A DNA stretch of 32,000 nt from Bdellovibrionales bacterium (GTDB taxonomy: Bacteria; Bdellovibrionota; Bdellovibrionia; Bdellovibrionales; UBA1609). Made by a program: the position numbers and the translations under genes. Below, in pieces: positions 270 to 30,064 of this stretch. Each line of letters opens with the position of its first letter. Positions within the stretch are counted from its first letter, which is position 1. Location: the NCBI GenBank assembly GCA_963692945.1, contig OY843585.1, positions 540,001 through 572,000 on the forward strand, read 5' to 3'. The notes below the pieces were generated by a model that did no database searches, was not told the origin of the DNA, and was given only the letters and a program-made list of their open reading frames with translations.

Positions 270-968
270 ATGAATCAAGATTCAATTATTTATTACATGA
301 AAGGACTAGGAAAAGTTTTAAGATCGGAATATTTTAAAACTGAGCATTCAAGAGTTCTTCAAGATTTACAAGATGCTACTTCTTTTGGTCAAGTCCGATC
401 TAAAGAATGGATACTGCAAATTCTAAAAGAAAAAAATATAAAAGATTTAGGTCAAATTTTTTTATGTGCTGGTTGGTATGGATTCTTGGCTTTTCTTTTA
501 TTGCAAGATACTTTCTTTTCTATTAAAAATATTTTTCTTTTTGAGAAAGACGAGTTAAGTGTAAAAGTTTCAGAACATATAAATTATTATTTTGTTCAAC
601 AAGAATGGAAATTTAAATCCACTTTTAAAGATATTTTAGATATTAACTATTCAGGTGATACTTTTAAAACTTTAAAGCCTAATGGAGAATTTGAAAAGAT
701 ATTTTCAGATCCAGATACAATCATCAATACTTCTTGCGAGCATATTAAGCAATTTGATGATTGGTGGGGTAAAATTCCAACTAAGAAATTAGTTATTTTA
801 CAAAGTAATAATTACAAAGAACTTGAAGAGCATGTAAATTGTGTTTCTTCTTTGAAAGAATTTAAAGAAAAAGCACCTATGAATCATTTGATATATGCAG
901 GATCTTTAAATTTAGAAAAATATACAAAACTAAAATATATACGTTTCATGTTAATAGGTTATAAGTAA
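270..968 (+). CDS. Hypothetical protein, possibly a class I SAM-dependent methyltransferase-like Rossmann fold
   Basis: The 232-aa ORF is first in a co-directional cluster. A glycine-rich stretch IFLCAGWYGFLA is followed by LFEKDE (acidic end of beta-2) and DTIINTSCEHI, resembling MTase motifs I, II and IV. The similarity is weak and judged by eye. Confidence 0.5.
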   Translation: MNQDSIIYYMKGLGKVLRSEYFKTEHSRVLQDLQDATSFGQVRSKEWILQILKEKNIKDLGQIFLCAGWYGFLAFLLLQDTFFSIKNIFLFEKDELSVKVSEHINYYFVQQEWKFKSTFKDILDINYSGDTFKTLKPNGEFEKIFSDPDTIINTSCEHIKQFDDWWGKIPTKKLVILQSNNYKELEEHVNCVSSLKEFKEKAPMNHLIYAGSLNLEKYTKLKYIRFMLIGYK

Positions 969-1043
969 GGTTAAATAAAAAACAACAAAAAGTATTATAT
1001 TTTACATTTGACCTTAATTTAGTTATATTATAGGGCTAAGTCT

Positions 1044-2537
1044 ATGAATCAGAAACCTAAAGTGGATGATTATGCATTTAATATGTCTCAAAATGAGGGT
1101 GCACCATCTTCTTGGTGTGTTTTGCCTTGGTCTCATATCAGTATTAAGAGGGACGGACAATTTAGAGTCTGTTGTTCGAGTAATGTTAGTAAGAATAAAG
1201 GTCTTTTAAGAAATAAAGAAGGGATGCCTTTTCATATAAGTAAGGATAAATGGGATGCTATTTTAAATAGTGAGATGATGAAGAGAATACGTAAAAATAT
1301 GCTTCAAGGAAAATGGAGTGAAGAGTGTAGGGGATGTAAAATTGAATATGAAAGTGATATGAGATCTAGTAATATTTCAAAACGTCATTATTTGGCCCAT
1401 AGACTGAAGAGTTCAGAGTATCCAAATTATATAAAAGCTAAAAAGTTAACAAAAGAAGATGGTTCAATATCACTTAAAGATTTTTCTATATCTTATTTAG
1501 ATATACGTTTTGGAAATCATTGCAATTTAAAATGTATGATGTGTGGTCCATCAGCTAGTAATAAATGGTATCAAGAGTATAAGGATATTTGGAAAGATGA
1601 TTTTTTTTGGGACGGAGATCAAAAAATAGATTTTATAAAAGGCTTTAATGGGAAACTAAAGGTAAATAAGCATATTTACGATTGGAGTGATGATTCTCAT
1701 TTATGGTTAGAAATTGAAAAATATTTAAATCAAATTAAAAAAATTTATCTAGCTGGAGGAGAGCCTTTACTTATTAAAGCTCATTATGATTTTCTAAAAA
1801 AATGTATAACTAAAAAGATCGCTTCTGAGATAGAGATAAACTACAACAGTAATATTACTCATATTCCAGATAAAGTTTTAGTTTTATGGAAGCATTTTAA
1901 ATCTATTTGTGTGGGTATGAGTATAGATGGTGTTGGTGAAATTAATGAATTGATTAGATATCCAAGTGATTGGAAAGAAATAGAGAATAATATTTTACGG
2001 CTTGATCAAATTGGTGGAAACCTTTCATTAAGTATAACTTCCACAATAAGTGTTTTAAATATTTGGCATTTACCAAAATTTCTTAATTATATTATGAAAA
2101 AAAATTATAAAACAATAAACAACTGGAATCTTGAGTTATTAACTAAGCCTCTTCCTCTTCATCAGCCACCGTATTTAAATTTAAATATTCTAGAGGATTC
2201 TTTTAAGGAAAAAATTGTTAAATATTTTAAAAATTGTAAGGAAGAGGTGAGGGAGTTTGACTGGGAAATTTCCAACAAGGATAACAAAATAAAAAGATAC
2301 TGTGAGATATTAGATCAGTATATAAATTATATGTATCAAGTTAAGTATGAAGAAAAAGTTTTAAGAAGTCATAGGGGTCAATTTATTTATTTTATGGATA
2401 AATTAGATCGTTTGAGAGGAACAAATTGGTCTAAAGTGTTACCAGAACTTTATGAGTCTACATTAGAGTGGAGAGATATCCTTAAATTAAAATCTTTTGA
2501 TAAAAAGTTTATTTATAAATCAGTTAAAATAAATTAA
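1044..2537 (+). CDS. Radical SAM enzyme with an N-terminal twitch/SPASM-like cysteine domain (copy 1)
   Basis: The canonical CxxxCxxC motif is present (FGNHCNLKCMMCGP). The N-terminal Cys pattern CVLPWSHISIKRDGQFRVCC...EECRGC resembles the Cx..PW..I...G....C / CxxC signature of SPASM/twitch auxiliary-cluster domains. That domain is normally C-terminal. AGGEPLL is a SAM-binding GGEP-type motif. Confidence 0.85.
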   Translation: MNQKPKVDDYAFNMSQNEGAPSSWCVLPWSHISIKRDGQFRVCCSSNVSKNKGLLRNKEGMPFHISKDKWDAILNSEMMKRIRKNMLQGKWSEECRGCKIEYESDMRSSNISKRHYLAHRLKSSEYPNYIKAKKLTKEDGSISLKDFSISYLDIRFGNHCNLKCMMCGPSASNKWYQEYKDIWKDDFFWDGDQKIDFIKGFNGKLKVNKHIYDWSDDSHLWLEIEKYLNQIKKIYLAGGEPLLIKAHYDFLKKCITKKIASEIEINYNSNITHIPDKVLVLWKHFKSICVGMSIDGVGEINELIRYPSDWKEIENNILRLDQIGGNLSLSITSTISVLNIWHLPKFLNYIMKKNYKTINNWNLELLTKPLPLHQPPYLNLNILEDSFKEKIVKYFKNCKEEVREFDWEISNKDNKIKRYCEILDQYINYMYQVKYEEKVLRSHRGQFIYFMDKLDRLRGTNWSKVLPELYESTLEWRDILKLKSFDKKFIYKSVKIN

Positions 2538-2540
2538 TAA

Positions 2541-3575
2541 ATGAAAAATTTGTTTTTTTTGTTTTTATTAAGTGTTTCTACATCTTGTAAAAAAGAATGT
2601 TGGGATGATAATATAGATTTTATAAAAATGGAGGAACATTTTGTTACTGGAAAAGTAAAAAAAGAAATTCTATTTAATGATTATTTTCCAGAATATAAAA
2701 AACGGAAAAGAGAAAAATATAAAATCTTATTTTATGAAGGAAAAACAAAAAAGTCAGATGATATAATGGTTTTCGAAAAAGCTACAGATATTAAAAGTTT
2801 GAATAATTCTATATTTTTATATAATTTTTCTAAATATATGGAATTGTCTTTTATTCCACCTAGTGTGTTGGTGAAAAAAAAGTATGATTATCCTGTACTT
2901 TTACAACTTTTTATTAATCAACCTGTAAAAATTCTAGGGGAATTTGAAGATTTTAAAAATAAAATAAGTTTAGAGGATAAAAGTGATTTATATATTTTTA
3001 ATTTTATAGCTGGAAAACTGGATGTGAGTAAATGGAATTTATTATATGACCCAAAATGTAATAAAATTATTTCTATTGATAACGATTATAGAGAAATAAG
3101 TTATATTAAGTATGGAGATTATCCTTTTATTGCTCACAGAATTATAAATGAGAAAAGCCAATCTCTTTCTGTTAAGGACTATGAAAATTTTCCTCTTGAT
3201 AAAGTAACAAAATTAACAGTGTCTCAATTTTTTAATTCTATTGTATGGTCTAGTTTATCATATTCAGATAAAATTAAGAGGAGACATGCTAAAGAAATAA
3301 TGCGTAAAAATTATTTAACAGATGATAAGATTTATTATGTAAAATATAAGGGTAGATATTGGATCAAGGACAATAGAATAATACTAAGATATTTCTATAA
3401 AGAAATAGGTGGTATGACTAAAGTTTTTTCTAGAAAAACTATTGGTAAGTTAAAATCTCTTAATAGAGAAATGTTAAAAAAATTAAGTAACAATATTTTG
3501 AGTGAAGATGAAATTGTGGGAATTCTTTATAGGAGAGATATTATCTTAAAAGAATCTGAAAAAATAAACTTGTAA
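2541..3575 (+). CDS. Putative lipoprotein with an atypical (PI3/PI4-kinase-like) kinase catalytic motif
   Basis: The N-terminus MKNLFFLFLLSVSTSC has a signal peptide followed by a Cys. The internal segment FNFIAGKLDVSKWNLLYDPKCNKIISIDND resembles a DxxxxN catalytic loop plus an IDN metal-binding motif of atypical kinases. The ATG lies 4 nt after the upstream stop, so the gene is operonic. Confidence 0.6.
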   Translation: MKNLFFLFLLSVSTSCKKECWDDNIDFIKMEEHFVTGKVKKEILFNDYFPEYKKRKREKYKILFYEGKTKKSDDIMVFEKATDIKSLNNSIFLYNFSKYMELSFIPPSVLVKKKYDYPVLLQLFINQPVKILGEFEDFKNKISLEDKSDLYIFNFIAGKLDVSKWNLLYDPKCNKIISIDNDYREISYIKYGDYPFIAHRIINEKSQSLSVKDYENFPLDKVTKLTVSQFFNSIVWSSLSYSDKIKRRHAKEIMRKNYLTDDKIYYVKYKGRYWIKDNRIILRYFYKEIGGMTKVFSRKTIGKLKSLNREMLKKLSNNILSEDEIVGILYRRDIILKESEKINL

Positions 3576-3634
3576 TAACAAGTTTAAGAGAAATCTAATT
3601 GACCTTAATTTAGTTATATTATAGGGCTAAGTCT

Positions 3635-5128
3635 ATGGATCAGAAACCTAAACTGGATGATTATGCATTTAATATGTCTCAAAATGAGGGTGCACCATCT
3701 TCTTGGTGTGTTTTGCCTTGGTCTCATATTAATATTAAAGAGAAAGGGGAGTTTAGAATTTGTTGTCATAGTAACTCCAGTAAGAATAAAGGTCTTTTAA
3801 GAAATAAAGAAGGGATGCCTTTTCATATAAGTAAGGATAAATGGGATGCTATTTTCAATAGTGAGATGATGAAAAGAGTACGTAAAAATATGCTTCAAGG
3901 AAAATGGAGTGAAGAATGTAGGAGATGTAAAATTGAATATGAAAGTGATATGAGATCTAGAAACATTTGTGAGCGTAGTCACTTGGCCCATAGACTTAAG
4001 AGTTCAGAGTATCCAAATTATATAAAAGCTAAAAAGTTAACAAAAAAAGATGGTTCAATATTACTTAAAGATTTTTCTATATCTTATTTAGATATACGTT
4101 TTGGAAATCATTGCAATTTAAAATGTATGATGTGTGGTCCATCAGCTAGTAATAAATGGTATCAAGAGTATAAGGATATTTGGAAAGATGATTTTTTTTG
4201 GGACGGAGATCAAAAAATAGATTTTATAAAAGGCTTTAATGGGAAACTAAAGGTAAATAAGCATATTTACGATTGGAGTGATGATTCTCATTTATGGTTA
4301 GAAATTGAAAAATATTTAAATCAAGCTAAAGTCATTTATCTGGCTGGAGGAGAGCCTTTACTTATTAAAGCTCATTATGATTTTCTAAAAAAATGTATAA
4401 CTAAAAAGATCGCTTCTGAGGTATCGATAAACTACAACAGTAATATTACTCATATACCAGATAAAGTTTTAGTTTTATGGAAGCATTTTAAATCTATTTG
4501 TGTGGGTATGAGTATAGATGGTGTTGGTGAAATTAATGAATTGATTAGATATCCAAGTGATTGGAAAGAAATAGAGAATAATATTTTACGGCTTGATCAA
4601 ATTGGTGGAAACCTTTTATTAAGTATAACTTCCACAATAAGTGTTTTAAATATTTGGCATTTACCAAAATTTCTTAATTATATTATGAAAAAAAATTATA
4701 AAACAATAAACAACTGGAATGATAAATTATTATTAAACCCTCACCCTCTTCATCAGCCACCGTATTTAAATTTAAATATTCTAGAAGATTCTTTTAAGGA
4801 AAAAATTGTTAAATATTTTAAAAATTGTAAGGAAGAGGTGAGGGAGTTTGACTGGGAAATTTCCAACAAGGATAACAAAATAAAAAGATACTGTGAGATA
4901 CTAGATCAGTATATAAATTATATGTATCAAGTTAAGTATGAAGAAAAGGTTTTAAGAAGTCATAGGGGTCAATTTATTTATTTTATGGATAAATTAGATC
5001 GTTTGAGAGGAACAAATTGGTCTAAAGTGTTACCAGAACTTTATGAGTCTACATTAGAGTGGAGAGATATCCTTAAATTAAAATCTTTTGATAAAAAGTT
5101 TATTTATAAATCAGTTAAAATAAATTAA
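3635..5128 (+). CDS. Radical SAM enzyme with an N-terminal twitch/SPASM-like cysteine domain (copy 2, paralog of 1044..2537)
   Basis: Length is the same (497 aa), with about 29 substitutions versus copy 1 by manual alignment. The CNLKCMMC motif is identical. The upstream 36 bp and the downstream TAATAAATGAAAAATTT are also duplicated at an offset of 2,591 bp. Confidence 0.85.
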   Translation: MDQKPKLDDYAFNMSQNEGAPSSWCVLPWSHINIKEKGEFRICCHSNSSKNKGLLRNKEGMPFHISKDKWDAIFNSEMMKRVRKNMLQGKWSEECRRCKIEYESDMRSRNICERSHLAHRLKSSEYPNYIKAKKLTKKDGSILLKDFSISYLDIRFGNHCNLKCMMCGPSASNKWYQEYKDIWKDDFFWDGDQKIDFIKGFNGKLKVNKHIYDWSDDSHLWLEIEKYLNQAKVIYLAGGEPLLIKAHYDFLKKCITKKIASEVSINYNSNITHIPDKVLVLWKHFKSICVGMSIDGVGEINELIRYPSDWKEIENNILRLDQIGGNLLLSITSTISVLNIWHLPKFLNYIMKKNYKTINNWNDKLLLNPHPLHQPPYLNLNILEDSFKEKIVKYFKNCKEEVREFDWEISNKDNKIKRYCEILDQYINYMYQVKYEEKVLRSHRGQFIYFMDKLDRLRGTNWSKVLPELYESTLEWRDILKLKSFDKKFIYKSVKIN

Positions 5129-5131
5129 TAA

Positions 5132-6565
5132 ATGAAAAATTTAAAAAATCTCTTTAAACTTCATGTTTTGACAAAAGATTTGAGAGTGCCTTTTGATTTA
5201 AATATAGCACGTTCTCTTTTTTATTTTTTAGTTTTACAAAAAGTTTTAGAGCAAATTGATAGGTTTACAAATATAACCTATTCTTATCAGTCTTTTCTTA
5301 AAGTTTTTTGGACTCCAAGTTATTTATTTCAATTTTATCCTAGAGATTTATTATTATCTTGGGGAGAGATATATTTTATTTACTTACTTTTTTGCATTTC
5401 ACTTTTTTTCTGTATGATAGGTCTATATACAAGGTTTTTTAGTATCATTACTGCTATATTAGCACTTTTTTGTTTTGGATATATGCAACAGTTTGGAAAA
5501 ATTGACACAGAATTTACATTGCCTATTATTATTCTATTTGTTCTAGCATTTTTTTCTCAAATGAGTTCATCTTATTCATTACAAAATTTTTTAAAATTTA
5601 AGAATAAAAAAAAATTAATCAAAAGTTACGATTTATTTTGGAATCAGGTGACATTAAAATTCATATCAATCTTGCTTTTGCTTTTTTATTTTATAAGTGG
5701 TGTTCAAAAAATAAGATTTTCTGGTTTTGAATGGATTACAAAGGCTGAAATATTAAATGAAGCTCTTGTATGGCTTGGGCATCCTTATGGAGAGTATCTT
5801 GCACAGTTTCCTTCATGTGTGAAAATTCTTGCTTTTTTTGTTATACTTATTCAAATTTTATCTTTTATACCTATTATATTACCTCGTTTAATTCCTTATT
5901 GGGCCATTTTACTGGTTATTAGTTTTCATTTATTTTTGGATATGTTTATATCACAACATTATTTTTATCTTTATATTTACACATTTGTATTTTTAGTTCC
6001 ATGGTCAAGGCTCTTCTATATCTTATCTAGAGGAGAAATTAATATAGGTGGTTTATTAGAAAATTACTCTTTAATTTTTCTTTTTAAGAAAACTATCTTC
6101 AAACAAAGAATCCTTCTTTTAAAATTAATTGGAATAATAACTATTTTAGGATTTTTTATAGTAGCTCCAATTTTAGGAACTAAAAAATTATATCCTTTTC
6201 CAAAAATATCTATGTATTCTTATCCATTAGAAAGAGACAATCATGAGAATATAATAAAATTTTTTATATTTAAAAAAAATAAAAAAAGTAAGGATATTAT
6301 ATCTCATAATGAATTATGGCCTATCAGAAGAGATGTATTTATTTCTTATATAAAAAAACTTTACAAACAAAAAGAATATGAAAAAATTAAAATTATTATT
6401 AATAGGTTAAAAGAAAATCAGCCTTTCTTAATGAGATCAGATCTTAGCACTTTTAAGAATTATGATGAAATACTTATAGAGGCCTGTTATTGGAAAAATC
6501 TTGATATTTATTTTAAGAAAAAAAATCCAACAAATTGTGAAATTCTATTAAAAATAAAATTGTAA
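5132..6565 (+). CDS. Polytopic membrane protein, possibly HTTM (vitamin-K gamma-carboxylase-like) domain
   Basis: The 477-aa protein has many hydrophobic segments in its first ~340 aa. The N-terminal DLNIARSLFYFLVL resembles the D..sLA.FRi motif that opens HTTM domains. The C-terminal ~130 aa is a soluble Lys-rich domain. The family call is tentative. Confidence 0.6.
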   Translation: MKNLKNLFKLHVLTKDLRVPFDLNIARSLFYFLVLQKVLEQIDRFTNITYSYQSFLKVFWTPSYLFQFYPRDLLLSWGEIYFIYLLFCISLFFCMIGLYTRFFSIITAILALFCFGYMQQFGKIDTEFTLPIIILFVLAFFSQMSSSYSLQNFLKFKNKKKLIKSYDLFWNQVTLKFISILLLLFYFISGVQKIRFSGFEWITKAEILNEALVWLGHPYGEYLAQFPSCVKILAFFVILIQILSFIPIILPRLIPYWAILLVISFHLFLDMFISQHYFYLYIYTFVFLVPWSRLFYILSRGEINIGGLLENYSLIFLFKKTIFKQRILLLKLIGIITILGFFIVAPILGTKKLYPFPKISMYSYPLERDNHENIIKFFIFKKNKKSKDIISHNELWPIRRDVFISYIKKLYKQKEYEKIKIIINRLKENQPFLMRSDLSTFKNYDEILIEACYWKNLDIYFKKKNPTNCEILLKIKL

Positions 6566-6624
6566 ATGTCTAAAAAAAGACTTTTAATACTTGAAATTTT
6601 CATTTATATTTATACAATAAAAAA

Positions 6625-7173
6625 ATGGATATAGAATTAAGAAATAAACTAAAAGAGTATTGTATTCCACTTATGCCTCTACCAAAACCCTTACAGAATG
6701 TGGATTATGAAAAGTTGATACATATATTTGAACAAAATTCTTCTAAACTTAAAAAACTATCCTATAAACATACTATTAAAGGTACTAAAAAATCTATAGA
6801 TCAATTTTTTTATGAAATGTATTTTTCTTATCATGAATTTAATTATCTCTTTAAAGATATGATTCCCTTGAAGTGTCTAGGATATATGTATGTATATATA
6901 TCACCTAATTATGAAATACCTATCCACAAAGATACAGGATATGCAAAAACAAAATTGGGATTCTTTCTAAAAGGCAATGCTCCCATTCGTTTTTATCAAA
7001 ATGAGCATAGTTCTTCTTTTTTAGGTGAGTATAATTATGTATCTCCTTGTTGTATTAATGTGCTAAATTATCATAATGTTTCTAATAACCATTTAGAAAG
7101 ATTAACTTTTTTTCTTCAGTTTGAGGAAGATTATAAAGAAGTTTATAAAAAAGTAACAAATATTTATTCTTAA
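6625..7173 (+). CDS. Cupin/2OG-Fe(II) oxygenase-like protein (aspartyl/asparaginyl beta-hydroxylase / LpxO-like)
   Basis: An HxD motif (PIHKDTG) is followed by LGFFL, then NYHNVSNNHLERLTFFLQF. This resembles the H.v.N.s...R..L end of the Asp/Asn beta-hydroxylase family. Judged by eye only. Confidence 0.55.
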   Translation: MDIELRNKLKEYCIPLMPLPKPLQNVDYEKLIHIFEQNSSKLKKLSYKHTIKGTKKSIDQFFYEMYFSYHEFNYLFKDMIPLKCLGYMYVYISPNYEIPIHKDTGYAKTKLGFFLKGNAPIRFYQNEHSSSFLGEYNYVSPCCINVLNYHNVSNNHLERLTFFLQFEEDYKEVYKKVTNIYS

Positions 7174-7174
7174 A

Positions 7175-8083
7175 ATGATTTCTATCAATCATTTTAATAA
7201 GAAGACCTATGAAATTCCTGACAAAGAGATAGATTGTTTTCTTTCTAAAATCAATTCTTCCCAAGCTTTAAAATTTGTAAGAGATAAAAACACAGATAAA
7301 AAATTCATTGAGACTTATAGAAATTGGCTTTTTTCCAATAAAAATTATATGATGAATTCATTAGATGAAAAAAAATTTAATTCCTATATAATTTCTGGAA
7401 TAACACAAAGTTTCCATGATTTTTATCAAATACATCATAATAAAATTTTAAAAGTCAGACGAGGGGAGTATCCCTATCATAAGGTTTTTTTTAAATCTAT
7501 AGGAAGAAAATGGGGTTGGATTGAAGACGAGGGGCTTCATTCAAATGATTTTGTCATCATCTCTTATCCCTTTAGTGGTAATGGAAGTATAGGACATGAA
7601 ACTAAAGAGATTCTGAATTTATGCAATAGGTATCAAGTTCCTGTTTTATTAGATTGTTGTTTTTGGGGGTTATCTAGCCCCTTATCTATTGATTTAACAG
7701 AATATCCTTGCATTGAAATAGTTTCTTTTTCTTTATCAAAATTTTTTAATATTGGAAGATTACGTATAGGCATGATGTATTCTAAATATAAGGAACAGGC
7801 TTCAGGAGCTATCCTCGGTCCTTATAACTATGTCAATAGCTGGTCAGCTTATATTGCTTTTGAACTTATGAATCATTTTCCTATTAATTATATGTATAAT
7901 AAATACAGAAAGGCTCAAAAAGCAGTATGCAAAGAACTTCATATAGAGCCTTCAGAAACTTTATTTTTTGGATTAAGTAAAGAAGAAAAATGGAAAGATT
8001 TTTCTCGTGATGGAGTTTTTAATCGGATTTATCTTTCAGAGGCTATCTCTCAGTTTGTTCTTTCGCAGAGTATGGATAAATAA
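7175..8083 (+). CDS. PLP-dependent (aminotransferase class I/II fold-like) enzyme, short form
   Basis: VSFSLSKFFNIGRLRIGMMY matches the SxSK....G.R.G pyridoxal-lysine motif of fold-type I aminotransferases. The preceding VLLDCCFWG matches the acidic residue at the end of the beta-strand before the Lys. The start is 1 nt after the upstream stop. Confidence 0.6.
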   Translation: MISINHFNKKTYEIPDKEIDCFLSKINSSQALKFVRDKNTDKKFIETYRNWLFSNKNYMMNSLDEKKFNSYIISGITQSFHDFYQIHHNKILKVRRGEYPYHKVFFKSIGRKWGWIEDEGLHSNDFVIISYPFSGNGSIGHETKEILNLCNRYQVPVLLDCCFWGLSSPLSIDLTEYPCIEIVSFSLSKFFNIGRLRIGMMYSKYKEQASGAILGPYNYVNSWSAYIAFELMNHFPINYMYNKYRKAQKAVCKELHIEPSETLFFGLSKEEKWKDFSRDGVFNRIYLSEAISQFVLSQSMDK

Positions 8084-13452: not shown

Positions 13453-13800
13453 GGGGGTGTATTGGCTTCGACGTGGGTCATGACGCTTTTGGGAGCATGT
13501 AGAGGTTGCACAAGGTCCTCTTTAAAAATGTGTGTTTTTTAAACGGCAATTCTGTTGCCTTTGCTGCCTAATTTAGTGTAGCCGTTGAACCAAATTTTGG
13601 TGATGGATTTGGGGAAGCGACGCTTTTATCACCTCGGTCTTTCATTTTGTCTCAGGGTTAAAGACTTAAATTTATGAGAAAACAATCAATAGAACTTTGT
13701 TCTTGGAGGTCTATTGATTTAATAAAACAAGAAACAAACATGTAGTTGCCTGAAAGAAGATTTCTTGCGGACATGGGTTCAATTCCCATCACCTCCACCA
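13453..13800 (+). ncRNA. ssrA: tmRNA (SsrA)
   Basis: The 5' end GGGGGTGTATTGGCTTCGACG pairs with the 3' end CACCTCCACCA to give a tRNA-Ala-like acceptor stem with a G3:U70 wobble. A T-arm GGGTTCAATTCCC is present. The internal tag reading frame is ...GGC AAT TCT GTT GCC TTT GCT GCC TAA (ends 13571), giving ...GNSVAFAA*. Confidence 0.93.
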
Positions 13801-15378: not shown

Positions 15379-16005
15379 TTATTTTGTGCCATCATGTTTA
15401 TGTTGAAGATCTTTTCTTTGATCTATAGACCATACATCTAATCGACCTCCACCTAAATCTGCACAAGCTAAAGCGGTGTATTGTTTGTATTTACCACTTG
15501 TTAGTTTAACTTTTGCTTTCAAGCTTCCAGTGATACAAGCTCCACTTAAGTTTTTAACAGCTGTGTTTTTAGTAGAATTATTAGATTCTTTTAAAAAACA
15601 TTCAGTACTACTTCCTGAAGCAAAATCTTTACCACAAACTTCAAAGGTGTTGGAATTGCCTGTACCATTAGCAGTTCCTCCTATTGCACAATCTGGAATC
15701 CCAGATGTAGGACAACTCGTTCCTCCATCAATAGGGCTTTTGTCAAAACCTACATTGTAAATGTATTTTCCTACGAGGTCTAAATTGATGGCCTCTAAAT
15801 TATAATGATAGTTATTGTTATCTATATAAAAAATTCTCTCATTGCCATACAAATTGGAGAGCAATATTTTGGCTTCTGTTGTTTTTCCTTGTCTTTTTGT
15901 TTTCATAAAACTGATAACAGCCATAGAAGAAAGAATGGCTATGATACTTACCACAGTAAGTAGTTCAATGAGAGAGAAACCTTTGGACTTGTTGATAGAA
16001 TACAT
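15379..16005 (-). CDS. Type IV pilin (PilA/PilE-like), prepilin-type N-terminus
   Basis: MYSINKSKG|FSLIELLTVVSIIAILSSMAV shows a class III signal, with Gly-1, Phe+1 and Glu+5, followed by the hydrophobic alpha1-N helix. The C-terminal half contains several Cys. Confidence 0.85.
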   Translation of the reverse strand: MYSINKSKGFSLIELLTVVSIIAILSSMAVISFMKTKRQGKTTEAKILLSNLYGNERIFYIDNNNYHYNLEAINLDLVGKYIYNVGFDKSPIDGGTSCPTSGIPDCAIGGTANGTGNSNTFEVCGKDFASGSSTECFLKESNNSTKNTAVKNLSGACITGSLKAKVKLTSGKYKQYTALACADLGGGRLDVWSIDQRKDLQHKHDGTK

Positions 16006-17642: not shown

Positions 17643-18614
17643 TTAAGGGAGGAACTCAAAAGAGATTTTGATTTGAGTGTTGGTCACATCGGTTCTTTTA
17701 AATTTCATATGTTTCATATTATTTGCAAATAAAAAGCCATTGCTTTGATCGCAATTTAAAGATGTATTTTTATCTTTTACTATGCAGTGGTAAATGTCAT
17801 TATCTTTCATGGAATAGATAGAGATATGAATAATTCCAGCAAGAACCACATCCTGACCTCCAATAAGATGAGAGTTCAAAACAAAATCTTTTATGTTTCC
17901 ATAACTGGTTCCTCCAACGGCAGGGTTTAAAAAATTAAAATGAGACCCCATTCTGGTGTATTTTGTTACTGAAGGAGTATCGCTATGATGTCTTACTTTA
18001 GGGCAACTTGAAGTGTGATTCTTTGTTCCCATATAACCTAGAAAAGCAGGTTTTCTTGGAAAATCATTCATATTTAAAGGACGAGCGTTTCTTAAAAAAG
18101 CAGGAATATATAAAAGCACAAGTCCATTGTTTTTCCATAAATAGTTTAGTTCTTGTCTTAAATAACAATCATTAAAATAAGCATCATTCGGAGTTACGGT
18201 ATTGATGAGGTCATCATAGTAATAATTAAAAAATTCCATAATATTGACACGTTTTACATTTTTAATGGATAGAAATAAAAACTTCTTGTTATTTTCTAAA
18301 GTAAAAATTCTATTTTTATGGGTTAAGCTGAAGGAGTGATAATCTGGTAATACATCAAAAAAGTTTTTATTATTATCATCTTTAACATTTAAAATGCCAT
18401 AAGAGACGGCTATATTTTCAAGAGAGGTGTATAAAAATTTATTCAACCATTCTTCAGTGATTTTTTTATCCGCTTTTTTCTCAATATTCTTACCTTCTTT
18501 TGTTACCAATTGTAAAATGGATACAGAACCTAAAGTTACAAAAGCGAACATAGCAGCTGCAACTATAAGTTCTACAATAGAAAAACCTTTATTTTTTTGT
18601 ATAGATAATTTCAT
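17643..18614 (-). CDS. Minor (pseudo)pilin, PilW/PilV-like, prepilin-type N-terminus
   Basis: MKLSIQKNKG|FSIVELIVAAAMFAFVTLG has Gly-1, Phe+1 and Glu+5. The protein is 323 aa and lies in the pilin operon. Confidence 0.75.
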   Translation of the reverse strand: MKLSIQKNKGFSIVELIVAAAMFAFVTLGSVSILQLVTKEGKNIEKKADKKITEEWLNKFLYTSLENIAVSYGILNVKDDNNKNFFDVLPDYHSFSLTHKNRIFTLENNKKFLFLSIKNVKRVNIMEFFNYYYDDLINTVTPNDAYFNDCYLRQELNYLWKNNGLVLLYIPAFLRNARPLNMNDFPRKPAFLGYMGTKNHTSSCPKVRHHSDTPSVTKYTRMGSHFNFLNPAVGGTSYGNIKDFVLNSHLIGGQDVVLAGIIHISIYSMKDNDIYHCIVKDKNTSLNCDQSNGFLFANNMKHMKFKRTDVTNTQIKISFEFLP

Positions 18615-18634: not shown

Positions 18635-19147
18635 TTAATTTAAAGGAAGAAGCATTTTTAAATCCAAGAAAGCTTTATAAGAGTAAGAGTTTGGAGTACT
18701 TCCTGTTTGTCTTTCAATGCCTACAATCCAAATTTTAAAAAGACCTCGTGTATTTGAAAGAGGTATGAGTGACAGCCCTATGCGACTTTCACAATGAGGG
18801 CAGTCCTCTGCTTTTATAATATCTCCCTTAGAATCTATGGCAAAAGCCAAAACATCAAAAACAGCTGGATTGGCTGATATATGGGATTGCTCTGTATTTG
18901 CAATACCTGCAAAACCACTTTTTCCAGGAGGATAAAATTGATAATTGTTAGAATGAGATAGAAGAGATTGCACAATATAAGCTGCACTTTTAGAAGCTAA
19001 AGAAGCATCGGAAACATCTTCTATTTGTTTTGTGACTCCTGATAGAAAACTGATAAGAGCTGTAAAAATAGTTAAAACAATAGCAGAGCTGATTAAGATT
19101 TCTACTATACCTACACCTTTGTTATTTTTTAGAAATTGAACAAACAT
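18635..19147 (-). CDS. Minor (pseudo)pilin, prepilin-type N-terminus
   Basis: MFVQFLKNNKG|VGIVEILISSAIVLTIF has Glu+5. The ATG at 19147 overlaps the TGA of the giant upstream gene by 1 nt. The track start at 19150 is a TTG one codon earlier. Confidence 0.75.
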   Translation of the reverse strand: MFVQFLKNNKGVGIVEILISSAIVLTIFTALISFLSGVTKQIEDVSDASLASKSAAYIVQSLLSHSNNYQFYPPGKSGFAGIANTEQSHISANPAVFDVLAFAIDSKGDIIKAEDCPHCESRIGLSLIPLSNTRGLFKIWIVGIERQTGSTPNSYSYKAFLDLKMLLPLN

Positions 19148-22100
19148 CAATTTAGAGTTCCTTTCTTTAAAATAGGCCGACTTATAAATTTTCTTATATA
19201 AAATTTACAACTTACTCTTCTACTATTTTCATCTATGTGAGCACAATCTGGATCTACCGAAGTCCAAGTGAAAGGGTCTGCTTCTTTCATTAAACCAACA
19301 GGATTACAACTAAGAGAGGTTGCTCGGTTTTCAGGGTGAATGGGATTGCCAAGAAAGTTTTTATTATTATTACAATCTGATTTTGAAAGTGTTGTGTCTG
19401 TTCCGACTACATATTCATCACCTTTTGTTAAAATTTTCTGATCTCTTAATTCATAAAGAGCTTGAGCTTGCCAAATACTACCCCAAGTGACTCCATGTTG
19501 AAGGGCGGTTTTATGCACATTCAGTTGAGAGCTTATAACTGTCCCTATGATACGAAGAGGAGTGGTTCTTTGTTCTATAGTGAATTTATCACAAACAAAG
19601 AAACCCGTCACAAAATCAGCCGTGCTTTTAACTATGCAATGACCAAAGAGAGCCTTATTTTGAAATCTAAAATTTACACCAGAGCGAGTTGCATTTTTAT
19701 CATCAAGTATGAAAAGGCTTTTGTCAGTCCCTCTGTCTGTAAAATCCCAAGAGCTTCTAGTGAAAGGACTTAAATCAAAAAACCAATCTAAGCTGCCTAT
19801 AAAATTTTCTGGATCTTCAGTAGGGCAATGTTCGGATGTTATAAGTAAAGGAGTTGTTGAACGGTTGAGATCACTCGGGTCTTTAGCGAGCTGTCCTTTA
19901 TTATTCTGTCCCCAGCAGTAGAGTTTAGCTTTATTATCAGTGGGTAGGACTTGAATGGCACAGGTGTGGGAATATCCAGTTGAGACCTGTTTAATGTTTT
20001 GGTTTTGAAAAGCATTTGTTGTTTCCGTTCCATTTTTAACGAGTTTGGGTTTTTTGCGAGGACTTGTAGTGGTGCCATCTCCGATCTGTCCATAGAAATT
20101 ATGTCCCCAGCAGTAAAGTTTGCCTGCTTGAATGGCACAGGTGTGGAATCTTCCAGTTGAGACTGATGTGACATTTTGATTTTGAAAAGCACCTGAAACG
20201 GATGAAACGAGTTTGGGTTTTTTGCGATTATTTGTGTTGCCAGTGGTGCCATCTCCGATCTGTCCTTGGTTATTCCGTCCCCAGCAGTAAAGTTTTCCAG
20301 CTTGAATGGCACAGGTGTGGAAATCTCCAGTTGAGACTGATGTGACATTTTGATTTTGAAAAGCACCTGAAACGGATGAAACGAGTTTGGGTTTTTTGCG
20401 ATTATTTATGCTGTCATAGGTACCATCTCCGATCTGTCCATAGAGATTATCTCCCCAGCAATAAAGTTTTTGGTTTTGGATGGCACAAGTGTGGTCAAGT
20501 CCAGTTGAGACCGATTGGACGTTTTGGTTTTGAAAAGGATTGGTTGTTTCCGTTCCATTTAAAATGAGTGTGGGGCTTGCGCGACGATCTGTAGTGCCAT
20601 CTCCGATCTGTCCATGGTTATTCTGTCCCCAGCAGTAAAGTTTTTGGTTTTGAATGGCACAGGTGTGGGAACCTCCAGTTGAGACCTGTTTAATGTTTTG
20701 GTTTTGAAAACCACTTGAACGGGATCGCAAGAAGTAGGGTCTTAGTGTTGGGATAGGAGTTAAGCGGCCATCTCCGATCTGTCCATGGTTATTCTGTCCC
20801 CAGCAGTAAAGTTTTTGGTTTTGAATGGCACAGGTGTGGGAACCTCCAGTTGAGACCTGTGTTATGTTTTTTTCTGGAAAAAAGTTTTTTTCTACATTTA
20901 ATAAATGTACATCATCTGTGTTACCAATTCCTAATTGCCCTGAAGCATTATATCCCCAACATATATTTTTAGATACACTATTACCATCATCATCATATGC
21001 AATGCTAAAACAAGTATGATTTGCTCCTGTATCAAAAACATAAGTGGAACTTGGAAATGTAACTTTCACAGCTTTCTTTTTATTATCTGTGGTGCCATCT
21101 CCGAGTTGTCCCGAGCCATTCCGTCCCCAGCAGTAAAGTTTTTGGTTTTGAATGGCACAGGTGTGGTGATATCCAGTTGAGACTGATGTGACATTTTGAT
21201 TTTGAAAAGCACCTGAAACGGATAAAACGAGTTTGGGTTTGTTGCGATTATTTGTGTTGCCAGTGGTGCCATCTCCGAGTTGTCCGTAGTTATTCCGTCC
21301 CCAGCAGTAAAGTTTTTGGTTTTGGATGGCACAGGTGTGGTTACCTCCAGTTGAGACCGAATCCATTTGGATATTTTGGTTTTGAAAAGCATTTGTTGTT
21401 TCCGTGCCATCTGCAACGAGTTTGGGTTTGTTGCGATTATTTGTGTTGCCAGTGGTGCCATCTCCGAGTTGTCCGTAGTTATTCCGTCCCCAGCAGTAAA
21501 GTTTTTGGTTTTGAATGGCACAGGTGTGGTGATATCCAGTTGAGACTGATGTGACATTTTGATTTTGAAAAGCATTTGTTGTTTCCGTGTCATTTGCAAC
21601 GAGGGTGGGTGTGCGATGATTAAATGTGTAGCCAGTGGTGCCATCTCCGAGTTGTCCATAGGTATTATCTCCCCAGCAGTAAAGTCTTCCAGCTTGAATG
21701 GCACAGGTGTTGTTAACTCCAGTTGAGACTTTTGTTACGTTTTGGTTTTGAAAAGCATTTGTTGTTTCCGTGCCATCTGCAACGAGTTTGGGTTTTGTGT
21801 GTTGATTTACTGTGTTGCCATCTCCGAGTCTTCCATAGTTATTTTTTCCCCAGCAGTAAAGTCTTCCAGCTTGAATGGCACAGGTGTAGTCACTTCCAGC
21901 TGAGACTTTTGTTACGTTTTGGTTTTCAAAAGCATTGGTTCCTCCTGTTGTGCCATCTGCAACAAGTGTGGGTTTGTTGCGATAATTTGTGCTGCCATAG
22001 GTACCATCTCCGATCTGTCCATATTCATTACGTCCCCAGCAGTAAAGTCTTCCAGCTTGAATGGCACAGGTGTGTACACTTCCATTTGAGACTTTTGTTA

Positions 22101-23631
22101 CATTTTGGTTTTGAAAAGCTTTTGTTGTTTCCGTGCCATCTGCAACGAGTTTGGGTTTTGTGCGCCTCTCTCTGGTGCCATCTCCGATCTGTCCATAGCC
22201 ATTATATCCCCAACAGTAAAGTTTTTGGTTTTGGATGGCACAGGTGTGGCTTTGTTCACCTGAGACAGAAGTCACGGTGGCTGAAGAAGAATTCACACTG
22301 TAATCTAAAATTTCTGGAGTATGTAGGCACTCCTCAAGAGTGTCATTTCTTGATTCACAAGCTTCTTGACCTGAGAAAACCTCTAAACCTTTATCCGTTT
22401 TTTCAAGCACAACCCCTTTGTAAAATCCACCCATATTCAAATGGTTATAATCCATCAAGTATCCAGCTTTACTAGGTGTGAAATCTTGATTTTGCCCGTA
22501 AAGAAATTCTCCTTTTCCTAAAAACAATTTATCAAAAAAGTAGATGGGCGTAAAACTGGGGGTTGTTCCAGAAGCATACTTTTTAAAGTGTAGATTTCCA
22601 TTTACAAACACAGGGCTTTGAAAGGTCAAACCTTTGTAGGAAGATTTTTGAGCTTCTGTTATTTTTTCAAACTTGGTAGAAGTGCTAGGGGGAGAGACAC
22701 ATTTATCATCGGGTTGAATAGTTTGACGAGCGGGGGGGGGTAGACTAGAAGTGGTATCATAAAAATACATATCCCTAGCCAATACAAGAGAAAAAGTGTT
22801 CATCTCCCTTGGAAATAAAGAAACATCCCATTCTGCTGTATAGTTTTTGGTTATGCTTTTTTCTGTAAAGTTGGTTTCAATTTTAACTTTTATATATTTT
22901 TCACTTCCACGAACTTGATAAGTTTGTGCTTCATTACTGATAGTGATTTTTAAAGTATTCATTTTAATTTTCATAGTGTTGGAAGAGGTGTAAGATTGAA
23001 AATAATCACTTAAGGCAAATTTAGTTTTATCTTTTAAGTCTGAGCTGCTAAAAACTTTATAAAAAGAATTAAGTTTAATGGTATTCAAATTTGTAGGGAG
23101 GTTGATACATTTATCACAATCAGATCTTTTTTGTTTGAGGCAAGTTTTTTGTGCTGCTGTGCAAATATCTGAAGGGTTATCTTGTCTTAATTTTTCAAGT
23201 TTAGCTAACTCAATGTCTCCAAAAAGAACTCTTTCTGAACTCATTGGATCGGTTAATTTATCACATTGAGATTGATAACCCCATTTATCATTAAAACACC
23301 ATTTTCTCTCAACACCAAAAAGAGTGTATTTAATAACAGATTGTATGGATTCTTTAAAAAGAATGAAGTTATCGGTTTCTACTTGTTGTGATTTGTATTG
23401 TAAGACATAGTGACCAACAAATAAAATCATAGGAAGGGTTGTTATTGAAATAACAATAGGCAAGAAAATAGACCCTGTTTTGCTAAATAACCTATTGAAC
23501 TTTATGAGTTTATTGAACTTTATGAAACGACTCCTATGTTTAACCAACATAAATTGCTTTTTGACTTTTAAAAGGGATGTATTCAAATGACCATAGAACG
23601 ATTTAGTAATAGTTTCCTTTTTTTTAATCAC
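19147..23631 (-). CDS. Giant membrane-anchored protein with 14 RCC1-type beta-propeller blades, first gene of the pilin operon
   Basis: The 1,494-aa ORF has an N-terminal hydrophobic helix (GSIFLPIVISITTLPMILFVGHYVL) like PilX-type N-termini. There are 14 repeats of S.G..HTCAIQ..KLYCWG.N.YGQ(I/L)GDGT, the RCC1 blade signature, enough for two 7-bladed propellers. The start is uncertain: GTG at 23631 or ATG at 23550. Confidence 0.88.
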   Translation of the reverse strand: MIKKKETITKSFYGHLNTSLLKVKKQFMLVKHRSRFIKFNKLIKFNRLFSKTGSIFLPIVISITTLPMILFVGHYVLQYKSQQVETDNFILFKESIQSVIKYTLFGVERKWCFNDKWGYQSQCDKLTDPMSSERVLFGDIELAKLEKLRQDNPSDICTAAQKTCLKQKRSDCDKCINLPTNLNTIKLNSFYKVFSSSDLKDKTKFALSDYFQSYTSSNTMKIKMNTLKITISNEAQTYQVRGSEKYIKVKIETNFTEKSITKNYTAEWDVSLFPREMNTFSLVLARDMYFYDTTSSLPPPARQTIQPDDKCVSPPSTSTKFEKITEAQKSSYKGLTFQSPVFVNGNLHFKKYASGTTPSFTPIYFFDKLFLGKGEFLYGQNQDFTPSKAGYLMDYNHLNMGGFYKGVVLEKTDKGLEVFSGQEACESRNDTLEECLHTPEILDYSVNSSSATVTSVSGEQSHTCAIQNQKLYCWGYNGYGQIGDGTRERRTKPKLVADGTETTKAFQNQNVTKVSNGSVHTCAIQAGRLYCWGRNEYGQIGDGTYGSTNYRNKPTLVADGTTGGTNAFENQNVTKVSAGSDYTCAIQAGRLYCWGKNNYGRLGDGNTVNQHTKPKLVADGTETTNAFQNQNVTKVSTGVNNTCAIQAGRLYCWGDNTYGQLGDGTTGYTFNHRTPTLVANDTETTNAFQNQNVTSVSTGYHHTCAIQNQKLYCWGRNNYGQLGDGTTGNTNNRNKPKLVADGTETTNAFQNQNIQMDSVSTGGNHTCAIQNQKLYCWGRNNYGQLGDGTTGNTNNRNKPKLVLSVSGAFQNQNVTSVSTGYHHTCAIQNQKLYCWGRNGSGQLGDGTTDNKKKAVKVTFPSSTYVFDTGANHTCFSIAYDDDGNSVSKNICWGYNASGQLGIGNTDDVHLLNVEKNFFPEKNITQVSTGGSHTCAIQNQKLYCWGQNNHGQIGDGRLTPIPTLRPYFLRSRSSGFQNQNIKQVSTGGSHTCAIQNQKLYCWGQNNHGQIGDGTTDRRASPTLILNGTETTNPFQNQNVQSVSTGLDHTCAIQNQKLYCWGDNLYGQIGDGTYDSINNRKKPKLVSSVSGAFQNQNVTSVSTGDFHTCAIQAGKLYCWGRNNQGQIGDGTTGNTNNRKKPKLVSSVSGAFQNQNVTSVSTGRFHTCAIQAGKLYCWGHNFYGQIGDGTTTSPRKKPKLVKNGTETTNAFQNQNIKQVSTGYSHTCAIQVLPTDNKAKLYCWGQNNKGQLAKDPSDLNRSTTPLLITSEHCPTEDPENFIGSLDWFFDLSPFTRSSWDFTDRGTDKSLFILDDKNATRSGVNFRFQNKALFGHCIVKSTADFVTGFFVCDKFTIEQRTTPLRIIGTVISSQLNVHKTALQHGVTWGSIWQAQALYELRDQKILTKGDEYVVGTDTTLSKSDCNNNKNFLGNPIHPENRATSLSCNPVGLMKEADPFTWTSVDPDCAHIDENSRRVSCKFYIRKFISRPILKKGTLN
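19875..22290 (-). repeat. Intragenic tandem coding repeats (RCC1 blades), several nearly identical at nucleotide level
   Basis: Stretches longer than 100 nt recur, for example GAGACTGATGTGACATTTTGATTTTGAAAAGCACCTGAAACGGAT.AAACGAGTTTGGGTTT starting near 20159, 20333 and 21178. Confidence 0.85.
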
Positions 23632-30022: not shown

Positions 30023-30064
30023 TAAATGCTAATAACCTCAAAACTTCTAAAAATCGGTGTTTTT

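Follow-up and report, generated by a model that had tools for sequence, protein, structure and literature searches.

The 32,000-nucleotide stretch of a Bdellovibrionales chromosome analyzed here (contig OY843585.1, positions 540,001 to 572,000, referred to below as the window) carries two radical S-adenosylmethionine (SAM) genes, denoted rSAM copy 1 and rSAM copy 2, whose products are identical at 468 of 497 residues. The few differences between the two copies are concentrated in five short islands with a total length of 118 nt, which are scattered over 1 kb within a uniformly similar background. We interpret the pair, with moderate confidence, as two functional enzymes with a shared chemistry that are homogenized by recombination and kept separate by selection at specificity islands, with copy 2 representing the canonical type and copy 1 a new type. 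The pair is an unusually clean case of a known evolutionary pattern, in a catalogued enzyme subfamily.

Mosaic divergence in a 1,544-bp direct repeat

Both genes lie in a direct repeat of 1,544 bp. Shifted by a constant 2,591 bp, its two copies can be aligned without indels and differ at 63 positions, which corresponds to 95.9% identity. The repeat unit includes 36 bp upstream of the ATG, which are identical in both copies, the entire 497-codon open reading frame (ORF) together with its two stops (TAA-TAA), and 11 nt from the beginning of the gene that follows (ATGAAAAATTT), so that both downstream genes begin with MKNL; the 36 bp and the MKNL start had been recognized correctly in the initial annotation. 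The annotation had also described a 2,591-bp tandem duplication, and this we reject: only 1,544 of the 2,591 bp are repeated, and the whole unit is not present head-to-tail. Instead, the repeat copies flank 1,047 bp of unique DNA (2552–3598) that holds a genuine and conserved gene, o344. When this spacer was compared with the corresponding segment after copy 2 (5143–6189, gene o477), the identity was at random level without nucleotide similarity, and no similarity was found between the o344 and o477 proteins. The constant offset of the segments first proposed, 1008–2555 and 3599–5146, stands, but the true ends are at 2551 and 5142, the last four positions all being mismatches. Outside both ends of the repeat, identity drops at once to the random level, and the borders are sharp, with identical runs at the two ends (39 and 194 nt) and without an erosion gradient.

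The five islands hold 48 of the 63 mismatches and are 40.7% divergent, versus 15 differences, or 1.05% divergence, in the other 1,426 nt, which make up about 92% of the repeat and have a synonymous divergence (dS) of 0.03. This clustering is far beyond chance: 19 mismatches fall into one 50-nt window, compared with a maximum of 11 in 20,000 permutations (p < 5e-5), and neighboring mismatches are separated by gaps of at most 5 nt in 38 cases, where the null model gives 11.7 on average. Codons in which two or three nucleotides differ number 17, and every one of them is inside an island. Synonymous sites separate the old islands from the young background, with a proportion of synonymous differences (pS) of 0.66 in the islands, which amounts to saturation, and 0.029 in the background, so that the synonymous divergence of the islands is at least 50-fold that of the background. 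The island borders were first drawn post hoc, and the test was repeated with islands bounded by amino acid changes only. In this version, unchanged residues with a synonymous difference made up 4 of 16 codons inside the islands and 9 of 452 outside (Fisher p = 5e-4); island 1, for example, includes synonymous changes at the unchanged residues K35, G38 and N47.

At the protein level, 29 of the 497 residues differ, exactly the number given in the initial annotation, which had also quoted the peptide differences correctly, including the extra C112 of copy 2. Its regional counts, about 19 differences among the first 142 residues and 128 identical residues at the end, were nearly right and are corrected here: residues 1–142 hold 18 differences, the 19th is at position 143, the last is at position 370, and the 127 residues after it show no change, their codons containing 3 synonymous nucleotide differences. 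Nonsynonymous codons (29) outnumber codons with only synonymous changes (13); the sliding-window and synonymous-site comparison that had been suggested as a check thus shows differences that are clustered and not synonymous-dominated.

A recent duplicate diverging by point mutation and positive selection was rejected, because these processes would not lift synonymous divergence locally, and the model of a recent neutral duplicate was rejected as well. The island sequence is old or imported, and the background is young or homogenized. The at least 50-fold synonymous contrast between islands and background requires a recombinational history of the gene conversion type, and two features by which gene conversion is recognized are present, namely, clustered differences with long identical tracts and strong heterogeneity of synonymous divergence along the pair. 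The initial annotation had proposed gene conversion of the 3′ part of the gene. Its recombinational component holds, but the restriction to the 3′ part does not: the whole gene is homogenized, including the stretches between the N-terminal islands, and one island (codons 363–370) falls in the 3′ third. Background differences are enriched between islands 1 and 2, where 8 of the 15 occur in 262 of the 1,426 nt (18%; post hoc p = 0.002), as expected if exchange tracts must fit between protected islands. The ratio of nonsynonymous to synonymous divergence (dN/dS) is about 0.24 in the background and, given that both ORFs are intact, indicates that both genes are under purifying selection.

An assembly or polishing artefact, in which cross-mapped reads homogenized evenly diverged paralogs or strain variants, or in which the second copy was mis-joined, could be suspected in a sequence that comes from a single 1.56-Mb contig of an uncultured-type lineage, all the more as a 1.5-kb repeat at 96% identity can draw cross-mapped short reads. 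However, each copy has unique flanks on both sides, with a different intact downstream gene joined in frame, both ORFs are intact and without frameshifts, and the background retains 15 isolated differences, whose dN/dS ratio is that of ordinary purifying selection. Moreover, stretches must be highly similar to be cross-mapped, so that the contrast with the 41%-divergent islands would stay real. Polishing could exaggerate the homogeneity of the background, but could not create the contrast, and we consider an artefact quite improbable.

The radical SAM proteins, their islands and the family signature

Both copies match the NCBIfam family NF033640 (N_Twi_rSAM, twitch domain-containing radical SAM protein) end to end, residues 22–471 aligning with positions 2–396 of the 398-position profile (curated cutoff, 170 bits). 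They also match PF04055 at residues 155–344 (35.8 and 32.7 bits; gathering cutoff 29.5) and PF13186, a SPASM/twitch-type iron-sulfur domain, at residues 25–99 (25.4 and 23.5 bits; cutoff 21.5), so that their annotation as radical SAM paralogs is borne out. In an alignment with 88 homologs, both copies keep all 18 invariant family columns, among them C43, C95, C98, C160, C164, C167 and G238-G239-E240-P241. Thus, the CX3CX2C site for the SAM-cleaving [4Fe-4S] cluster (C160, C164, C167) and the GGEP SAM-binding motif (238–241) are present in both, as is the N-terminal twitch, which consists of the C25-x12-G38-x4-C43 hairpin followed by C44 and C95-x-x-C98. Between residues 98 and 160, copy 1 has no cysteine and copy 2 has only C112. 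The initial annotation had given weight to this gained cysteine, but residue 112 varies within the family, 33 of 58 homologs having Tyr there, and does not belong to the conserved ligand positions. Both proteins lack the additional cysteines that define a full SPASM domain (the seven-Cys set with CX2CX5CX3C), as is characteristic of a twitch, and the cysteine pattern suggests one predicted auxiliary cluster per protein. Overall, with intact ORFs, all invariant residues kept and NF033640 scores of 345 and 337 bits, both copies look functional.

The AlphaFold2 (AF2) model of the protein, with a predicted local distance difference test score (pLDDT) of 93.9 and a predicted template modeling score of 0.91, features a long C-terminal helical domain (about 385–480) after the core. 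Sequence and fold searches of the PDB returned only generic radical SAM cores (SkfB, anSME, BlsE, viperin; template modeling scores of 0.3–0.4), and our literature searches found no paper on an N-terminal twitch enzyme or on a radical SAM expansion in Oligoflexia/Bdellovibrionota. Several functional assignments were tried. Nothing pointed to a maturase of peptides synthesized ribosomally and modified post-translationally (RiPPs): the Pfam and NCBIfam scans gave no match to a RiPP recognition element or PqqD, the RiPP equivalog models (PapB, SkfB, HxsC) score about 23 bits against cutoffs of 268–340, and no precursor-peptide gene is evident beside the two genes within the window, where the gaps around these genes measure 3–76 nt and every small ORF overlaps a larger gene. 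Membership in the prokaryotic viperins (pVip) was rejected as well (NF038283, 16.6 bits versus a cutoff of 180; PADLOC pVip, 22 bits over the generic core only), and so was an origin from defense systems or phages, given that the similarity to pVip and to a phage radical SAM family is confined to the generic core.

The islands map to distinct structural elements. Island 1 coincides with the twitch β-hairpin C25-x12-G38-x4-C43 and includes the residue after the CC pair (S45 in copy 1, H45 in copy 2); island 2 is the start of helix 109–120, with S109/K113 in copy 1 and the canonical R109/E113 in copy 2. Islands 3 and 4 form the N-terminal ends of the adjacent core strands β2, just before GGEP, and β3, respectively (I231/K233 and I263-E264 in copy 1; A231/V233 and V263-S264 in copy 2). 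Island 5 is the loop before strand β6 and ends at H370 of the conserved H-P-x-H motif, which is L370 in copy 1. Throughout, the islands retain the invariant or near-invariant residues G38, R41, C43 and C44 and the highly conserved N110, R114 and P369.

On average, the differing positions are more variable in the family than the identical ones (mean entropy 2.2 versus 1.5 bits, p = 0.001). Despite this trend, five of them, H45, R97, R109, E113 and H370, are well conserved and make up a five-residue signature. Four of the five are located inside islands, and R97 results from an isolated single-nucleotide change. Among 58 closer homologs, 34 carry HRREH, as does copy 2, whereas in copy 1 all five residues are changed to SGSKL, a combination that matches no known subtype among the homologs compared. 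Over the 88 homologs the quintet is bimodal: all five residues are present in 38 and at most one in 20, whereas independent positions would lead one to expect 11.4 and 3.3. A tree from which the signature columns were left out implies about 10 independent switches of the signature, and in it copy 1 adjoins the canonical copy 2; the window pair itself is unambiguously such an independent switch.

The derived states are distributed over both copies. In island 2 (homolog cells, copy 2 versus copy 1, 103:11) and island 5 (68:5), copy 1 is derived, whereas in island 3 (0:26) and island 4 (4:24) the derived state is in copy 2; island 1 is mixed. Therefore, a simple picture of one diverging copy does not hold. 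Positions 233 (window 1740–1742) and 264 (1833–1835), in islands 3 and 4, respectively, are K-E in 9 homologs and charge-reversed E-R in 4; copy 1 has K-E and copy 2 has V-S at this pair of positions, and the co-variation suggests a paired contact, possibly a salt bridge. H45 directly follows the ligand pair C43-C44, and R97 sits within C95-x-x-C98. SPASM/twitch enzymes such as anSME and BtrN bind their substrate in a cavity next to the auxiliary cluster. Because H45 and R97 adjoin cluster-ligand cysteines, it is reasonable to infer that the signature lines the cavity beside the auxiliary cluster. The suggestion of the initial annotation that the two enzymes act on different substrates or steps is compatible with these locations, next to the auxiliary-cluster cysteines and at the other signature positions.

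Could the clusters instead be functionally meaningless, produced in a recent neutral or relaxed duplicate by a few multi-nucleotide mutational events, such as error-prone synthesis or template switching? Bacteria are known to acquire substitutions of several nucleotides in clusters, and the overall dN/dS of 0.36 is below 1. However, up to 19 changes within 49 nt left the conserved residues in place and introduced no stop or frameshift, no local or inverted template was found, all invariant residues are kept in both copies, and the changes coincide with a signature that co-varies across the family. We give this explanation very little credence.

In the mechanism that we propose, recombination would keep erasing differences between the copies, while selection would remove every exchange that overwrites the islands, so that only the protected islands would accumulate old divergence, with linked synonymous changes included. 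We know of no natural process other than long-term homogenization, combined with selection against overwriting exchanges, by which saturated islands come to stand in a background that is nearly identical. Concerted evolution that lasts over long times is documented for bacterial paralogs that occupy different genomic contexts, tufA/tufB among them (PMC6053082). The recombination would be gene conversion between the two copies or, alternatively, exchange among alleles followed by the capture of two alleles side by side. Copy 2 would have retained the canonical signature and remodeled the β2-β3 strand contact (islands 3 and 4), and copy 1 would have replaced all five signature residues. Most likely, cofactors and chemistry are common to the two enzymes, which would differ in the substrate or in the position at which they act on a single substrate. 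Each may also be co-translated with the gene that follows it, copy 1 with the one for the kinase-like lipoprotein and copy 2 with the one for the orphan membrane protein.

Alternatively, the 1,544-bp unit could have been duplicated recently (dS of about 0.03), with short patches subsequently overwritten by a diverged homolog, either a lost paralog or DNA of another strain. The sharp, un-eroded borders and the uniformly low divergence of the background fit this scenario, the saturated synonymous sites of the islands require old or foreign sequence, and relatives carry many diverged paralogs that could in principle serve as donors. However, no donor of the islands was found in the window on either strand with mismatches allowed (only chance 9-mers of AT-rich DNA were), and among the 120 matches listed there was no other family member from the 1.56-Mb contig of this genome. 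Furthermore, a donor of about 60% identity would lack the flanking homology for replacements of 5–49 nt and would itself have to be a near-identical mosaic. With five patches that are derived partly in copy 1 and partly in copy 2, at least five precise events would be needed, and the SGSKL combination of copy 1 matches no known subtype. On balance, we regard such an import of patches as unlikely.

Variable mini-segments between conserved ones formally resemble cassette systems, and the two copies are direct repeats 2.6 kb apart, which raises the question of programmed diversification by a diversity-generating retroelement or by cassette exchange that swaps islands between the copies. However, the changes show no adenine bias (A at 19 of the 63 sites in copy 1 and at 20 in copy 2), with 40 of the 63 being transitions, and the scanned ORFs of the window include no reverse transcriptase, integrase or transposase; there are only two copies, and the product is a cytoplasmic enzyme. 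On the first two counts, adenine bias and reverse transcriptase, a retroelement target was rejected, and programmed diversification in general is the least probable of the explanations considered here. A more speculative proposal, to which we attach hardly more weight, is that the islands are exchangeable mini-cassettes: the conserved stretches between them would supply the homology for frequent short exchanges between the copies, allowing up to 32 combinations per locus and thus combinatorial variation of the substrate pocket. If true, this could suit an arms-race role in a lineage that has expanded the family into arrays with as many as eight or nine radical SAM genes. In a tamer version of the same proposal, the approximately 21 island residues together with R97 would be the complete specificity code of the family, displayed as a minimal natural chimera.

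Several observations weigh against the combination of homogenization and selection that we favor. The sharp, un-eroded borders of the repeat would follow more readily from a duplication or insertion of recent date than from an old one, and islands as short as 5–24 nt presuppose either exchange tracts with very precise ends or a very long time span. Over the whole repeat, background differences are no nearer to the islands than random positions (p = 0.48), and the overall dN/dS of 0.36 gives no formal signal of positive selection. The co-variation of the signature is inflated by shared ancestry, and the closeness of the islands to the active site is read only from their adjacency to ligands in the sequence and from secondary structure. 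Finally, the best homolog among 5.8 billion proteins is 54% identical, and the other clusters at 90% identity consist of orthologs from different assemblies.

The pair is a natural experiment in the catalogued N-terminal-twitch radical SAM subfamily (NF033640): the differences between two otherwise identical sequences cluster in five islands, and four of the five signature residues are among the island positions. The islands probably point to where specificity is encoded, and the candidate specificity residues are 33–48, 97, 109–116, 231–233, 263–264 and 363–370. On the favored interpretation, the pair would also be a clean bacterial example of homogenization and functional divergence coexisting in one gene pair. 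From the interpretation given in the initial annotation, recombination and divergence near the cluster or substrate region are retained, and the geometry and 3′-only conversion are abandoned.

Neighboring genes and surroundings

The window is part of a low-GC chromosome (approximately 27–30%) and includes genes for a transfer-messenger RNA (tmRNA), three tRNAs, DciA, EF-Tu and an Mla transporter. The two radical SAM genes belong to a run of seven genes on the + strand (270–8083) with gaps of 1–76 nt. The GC content at third codon positions is similar in all seven (0.15–0.22), so that nothing in the run looks foreign. Exact protein matching, used to look on the source contig beyond the left edge of the window, found neither radical SAM copy on record. 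The promoter scan was uninformative in the AT-rich DNA of the window (50 promoter-like sites versus 59 expected), as was the terminator scan.

Table 1. Coordinates of the repeat, the divergent islands and the principal genes in the window
Feature	Position	Strand	Description
Direct repeat copy 1	1008..2551	+	36 bp before the ATG, radical SAM gene with its two stops, start (11 nt) of the following gene
Direct repeat copy 2	3599..5142	+	Aligns with copy 1 at constant offset
rSAM copy 1	1044..2537	+	497 aa; NF033640, 344.8 bits; signature S45-G97-S109-K113-L370 (non-canonical)
rSAM copy 2	3635..5128	+	497 aa; NF033640, 336.7 bits; signature H45-R97-R109-E113-H370 (canonical)
Island 1	1139..1187 (partner 3730..3778)	+	Codons 32-48; 19 of 49 nt differ
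Single-nt difference outside islands	1332	+	GGA/AGA; G97 (copy 1), R97 (copy 2)
Island 2	1370..1391 (partner 3961..3982)	+	Codons 109-116; 10 of 22 nt differ
Island 3	1734..1751 (partner 4325..4342)	+	Codons 231-236
Island 4	1830..1834 (partner 4421..4425)	+	Codons 263-264
Island 5	2130..2153 (partner 4721..4744)	+	Codons 363-370; 10 of 24 nt differ
o344	2541..3575	+	Unique gene between the copies; start-coupled to rSAM copy 1 (3 nt, the second TAA, between stop and ATG)
o477	5132..6565	+	477 aa; start-coupled to rSAM copy 2; predicted polytopic membrane protein
o302	7175..8083	+	302 aa; weak class I/II aminotransferase match; SxSK-type lysine motif (read from sequence)

The protein encoded by o344 has a lipoprotein-type signal (MKNLFFLFLLSVSTSC) and 98 representative homologs that align over nearly its full length, with the family consensus motifs ‘KAvFKP’, ‘D....NILI’ and ‘LIDND’, which resemble those of kinases. 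Its profile matches the FAM20A/C secretory kinases (E = 7e-4), and the AF2 model (pLDDT 86.8) gives fold matches to kinases only, all of them weak (PI4K type II, PI3K, HipA-like, CK1). Judging from these matches, o344 may be an exported atypical kinase without a Pfam family. A small AT-rich hairpin, ACTTGT-AATA-ACAAGT followed by TTT (approximately 3569–3587), spans the stop codon of o344 (3573–3575); it begins in the last o344 codons, and its end is 12 nt short of position 3599, where repeat copy 2 starts. The hairpin may be a weak terminator separating rSAM1-o344 from rSAM2-o477, although it was not called in the terminator scan.

For o477, no homolog was detected at E ≤ 1e-3 among the 5.8 billion proteins, and no Pfam or NCBIfam family was assigned. 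Its first 11 nt lie in the duplicated unit, and hence its start and first codons came with the duplication or were shared by it. Searches of o232, o182 and o302 against the PDB by sequence gave nothing significant. Among the neighbors in the window, only o302 has counterparts in the related loci: its orthologs are 60–65% identical (L006, 10001–10948; L007; L008) and are not located beside radical SAM homologs, but in clusters with TauD, Asp/Arg-hydroxylase-like, arylsulfotransferase, sulfatase, glycosyltransferase, methyltransferase, YdjC and fatty-acid desaturase genes.

Further features were noted elsewhere in the window. The tmRNA gene (13453–13800, + strand) has a short predicted tag peptide, GNSVAFAA. 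A 1,494-aa ORF on the − strand (19147–23631) consists of at least 13 RCC1 repeats (PF25390, 494 bits), with a DNA periodicity of about 183 nt and a GC content of 0.42 versus approximately 0.30, and is adjoined by genes with type IV pilin-like N-terminal methylation motifs (15379–16005 and 17643–18614). Also on the − strand, positions 27556–28842 encode a 428-aa fusion of an N6/N4 DNA methylase domain and an Mrr-type restriction endonuclease domain; about 1.2 kb past this fusion, a KAP/AAA_16-type P-loop nucleoside triphosphatase is encoded on the + strand (30026–31354). These two genes may form a small restriction or defense island downstream of the tuf-tRNA-Trp region.

Comparison with related loci and known systems

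The nearest homolog in a reference genome comes from a Bdellovibrionales metagenome-assembled genome (48% identity), and related proteins are labeled Oligoflexia. Radical SAM paralogs are present in every related locus, with four in L001 (4696–11419), about nine within 14 kb in L002, several in L005 (10001–15360), three in L009 (6708–10687) and eight in L010 (1–10711). Many of these genes are of the N-twitch type, and they are often arranged back to back among housekeeping genes; the array paralogs are only 23–51% identical to the window proteins, and no obvious precursor peptide or pathway partner was seen in the arrays. No neighborhood is conserved across L001–L010, where the arrays are embedded among housekeeping or unrelated tailoring genes, and the synteny of the locus is not kept in relatives. 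Clusters at 90% identity that resemble pairs turned out to be orthologs on different contigs or assemblies, and no relative has a pair above 90% identity. Control pairs of orthologs above 90% identity (up to about 99%) do not show this mosaic: in the clearest one, P0008/P0122, 13 of 18 differences come after residue 390, in the C-terminal helical region, where the window pair is identical, and the other control pairs are not clustered to the same degree. Expansion of the family is thus a common trait of the lineage, and no second near-identical mosaic pair has been seen so far.

In duplicated genes of the tuf type, selection favors uniformity, and the few differences are scattered. Unlike these, the window pair keeps five saturated islands at signature residues inside a homogenized gene. 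Otherwise the situation is alike: in tufA/tufB and in the cases described in PMC6053082, there are likewise two near-identical copies in different contexts, with homology that ends sharply at the gene borders. The latter cases are defined by recurrence across species.

With respect to the enzymes, the SPASM/twitch proteins anSME, BtrN, SkfB and BlsE have the same core and an auxiliary-cluster domain with a CX9-15GX4C hairpin, and the best fold matches of the window proteins are in this group (SkfB, 6efn; anSME, 4k36-4k39; BlsE, 7vob). However, the auxiliary domain is C-terminal in all four and N-terminal (25–99) in the window proteins, for which the SPASM/twitch equivalog models score far below their cutoffs. 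With the NF033640 family, for which no characterized member was found, the window pair shares the N-terminal C-x12-G-x4-C hairpin and the CxxC pair, followed by the CX3CX2C core, but copy 1 is without all five of the signature residues that most close homologs carry.

The distribution of the differences has a counterpart in models of duplicated genes in which gene conversion is combined with selection for divergence. Those of Innan and of Teshima and Innan reportedly predict that, in a pair that is otherwise homogenized, old divergence stands out as narrow peaks about the selected sites; they are theoretical, with examples that are mostly eukaryotic. The pattern of the window pair matches this prediction, with five islands here, 2–17 codons in length and derived in different copies.

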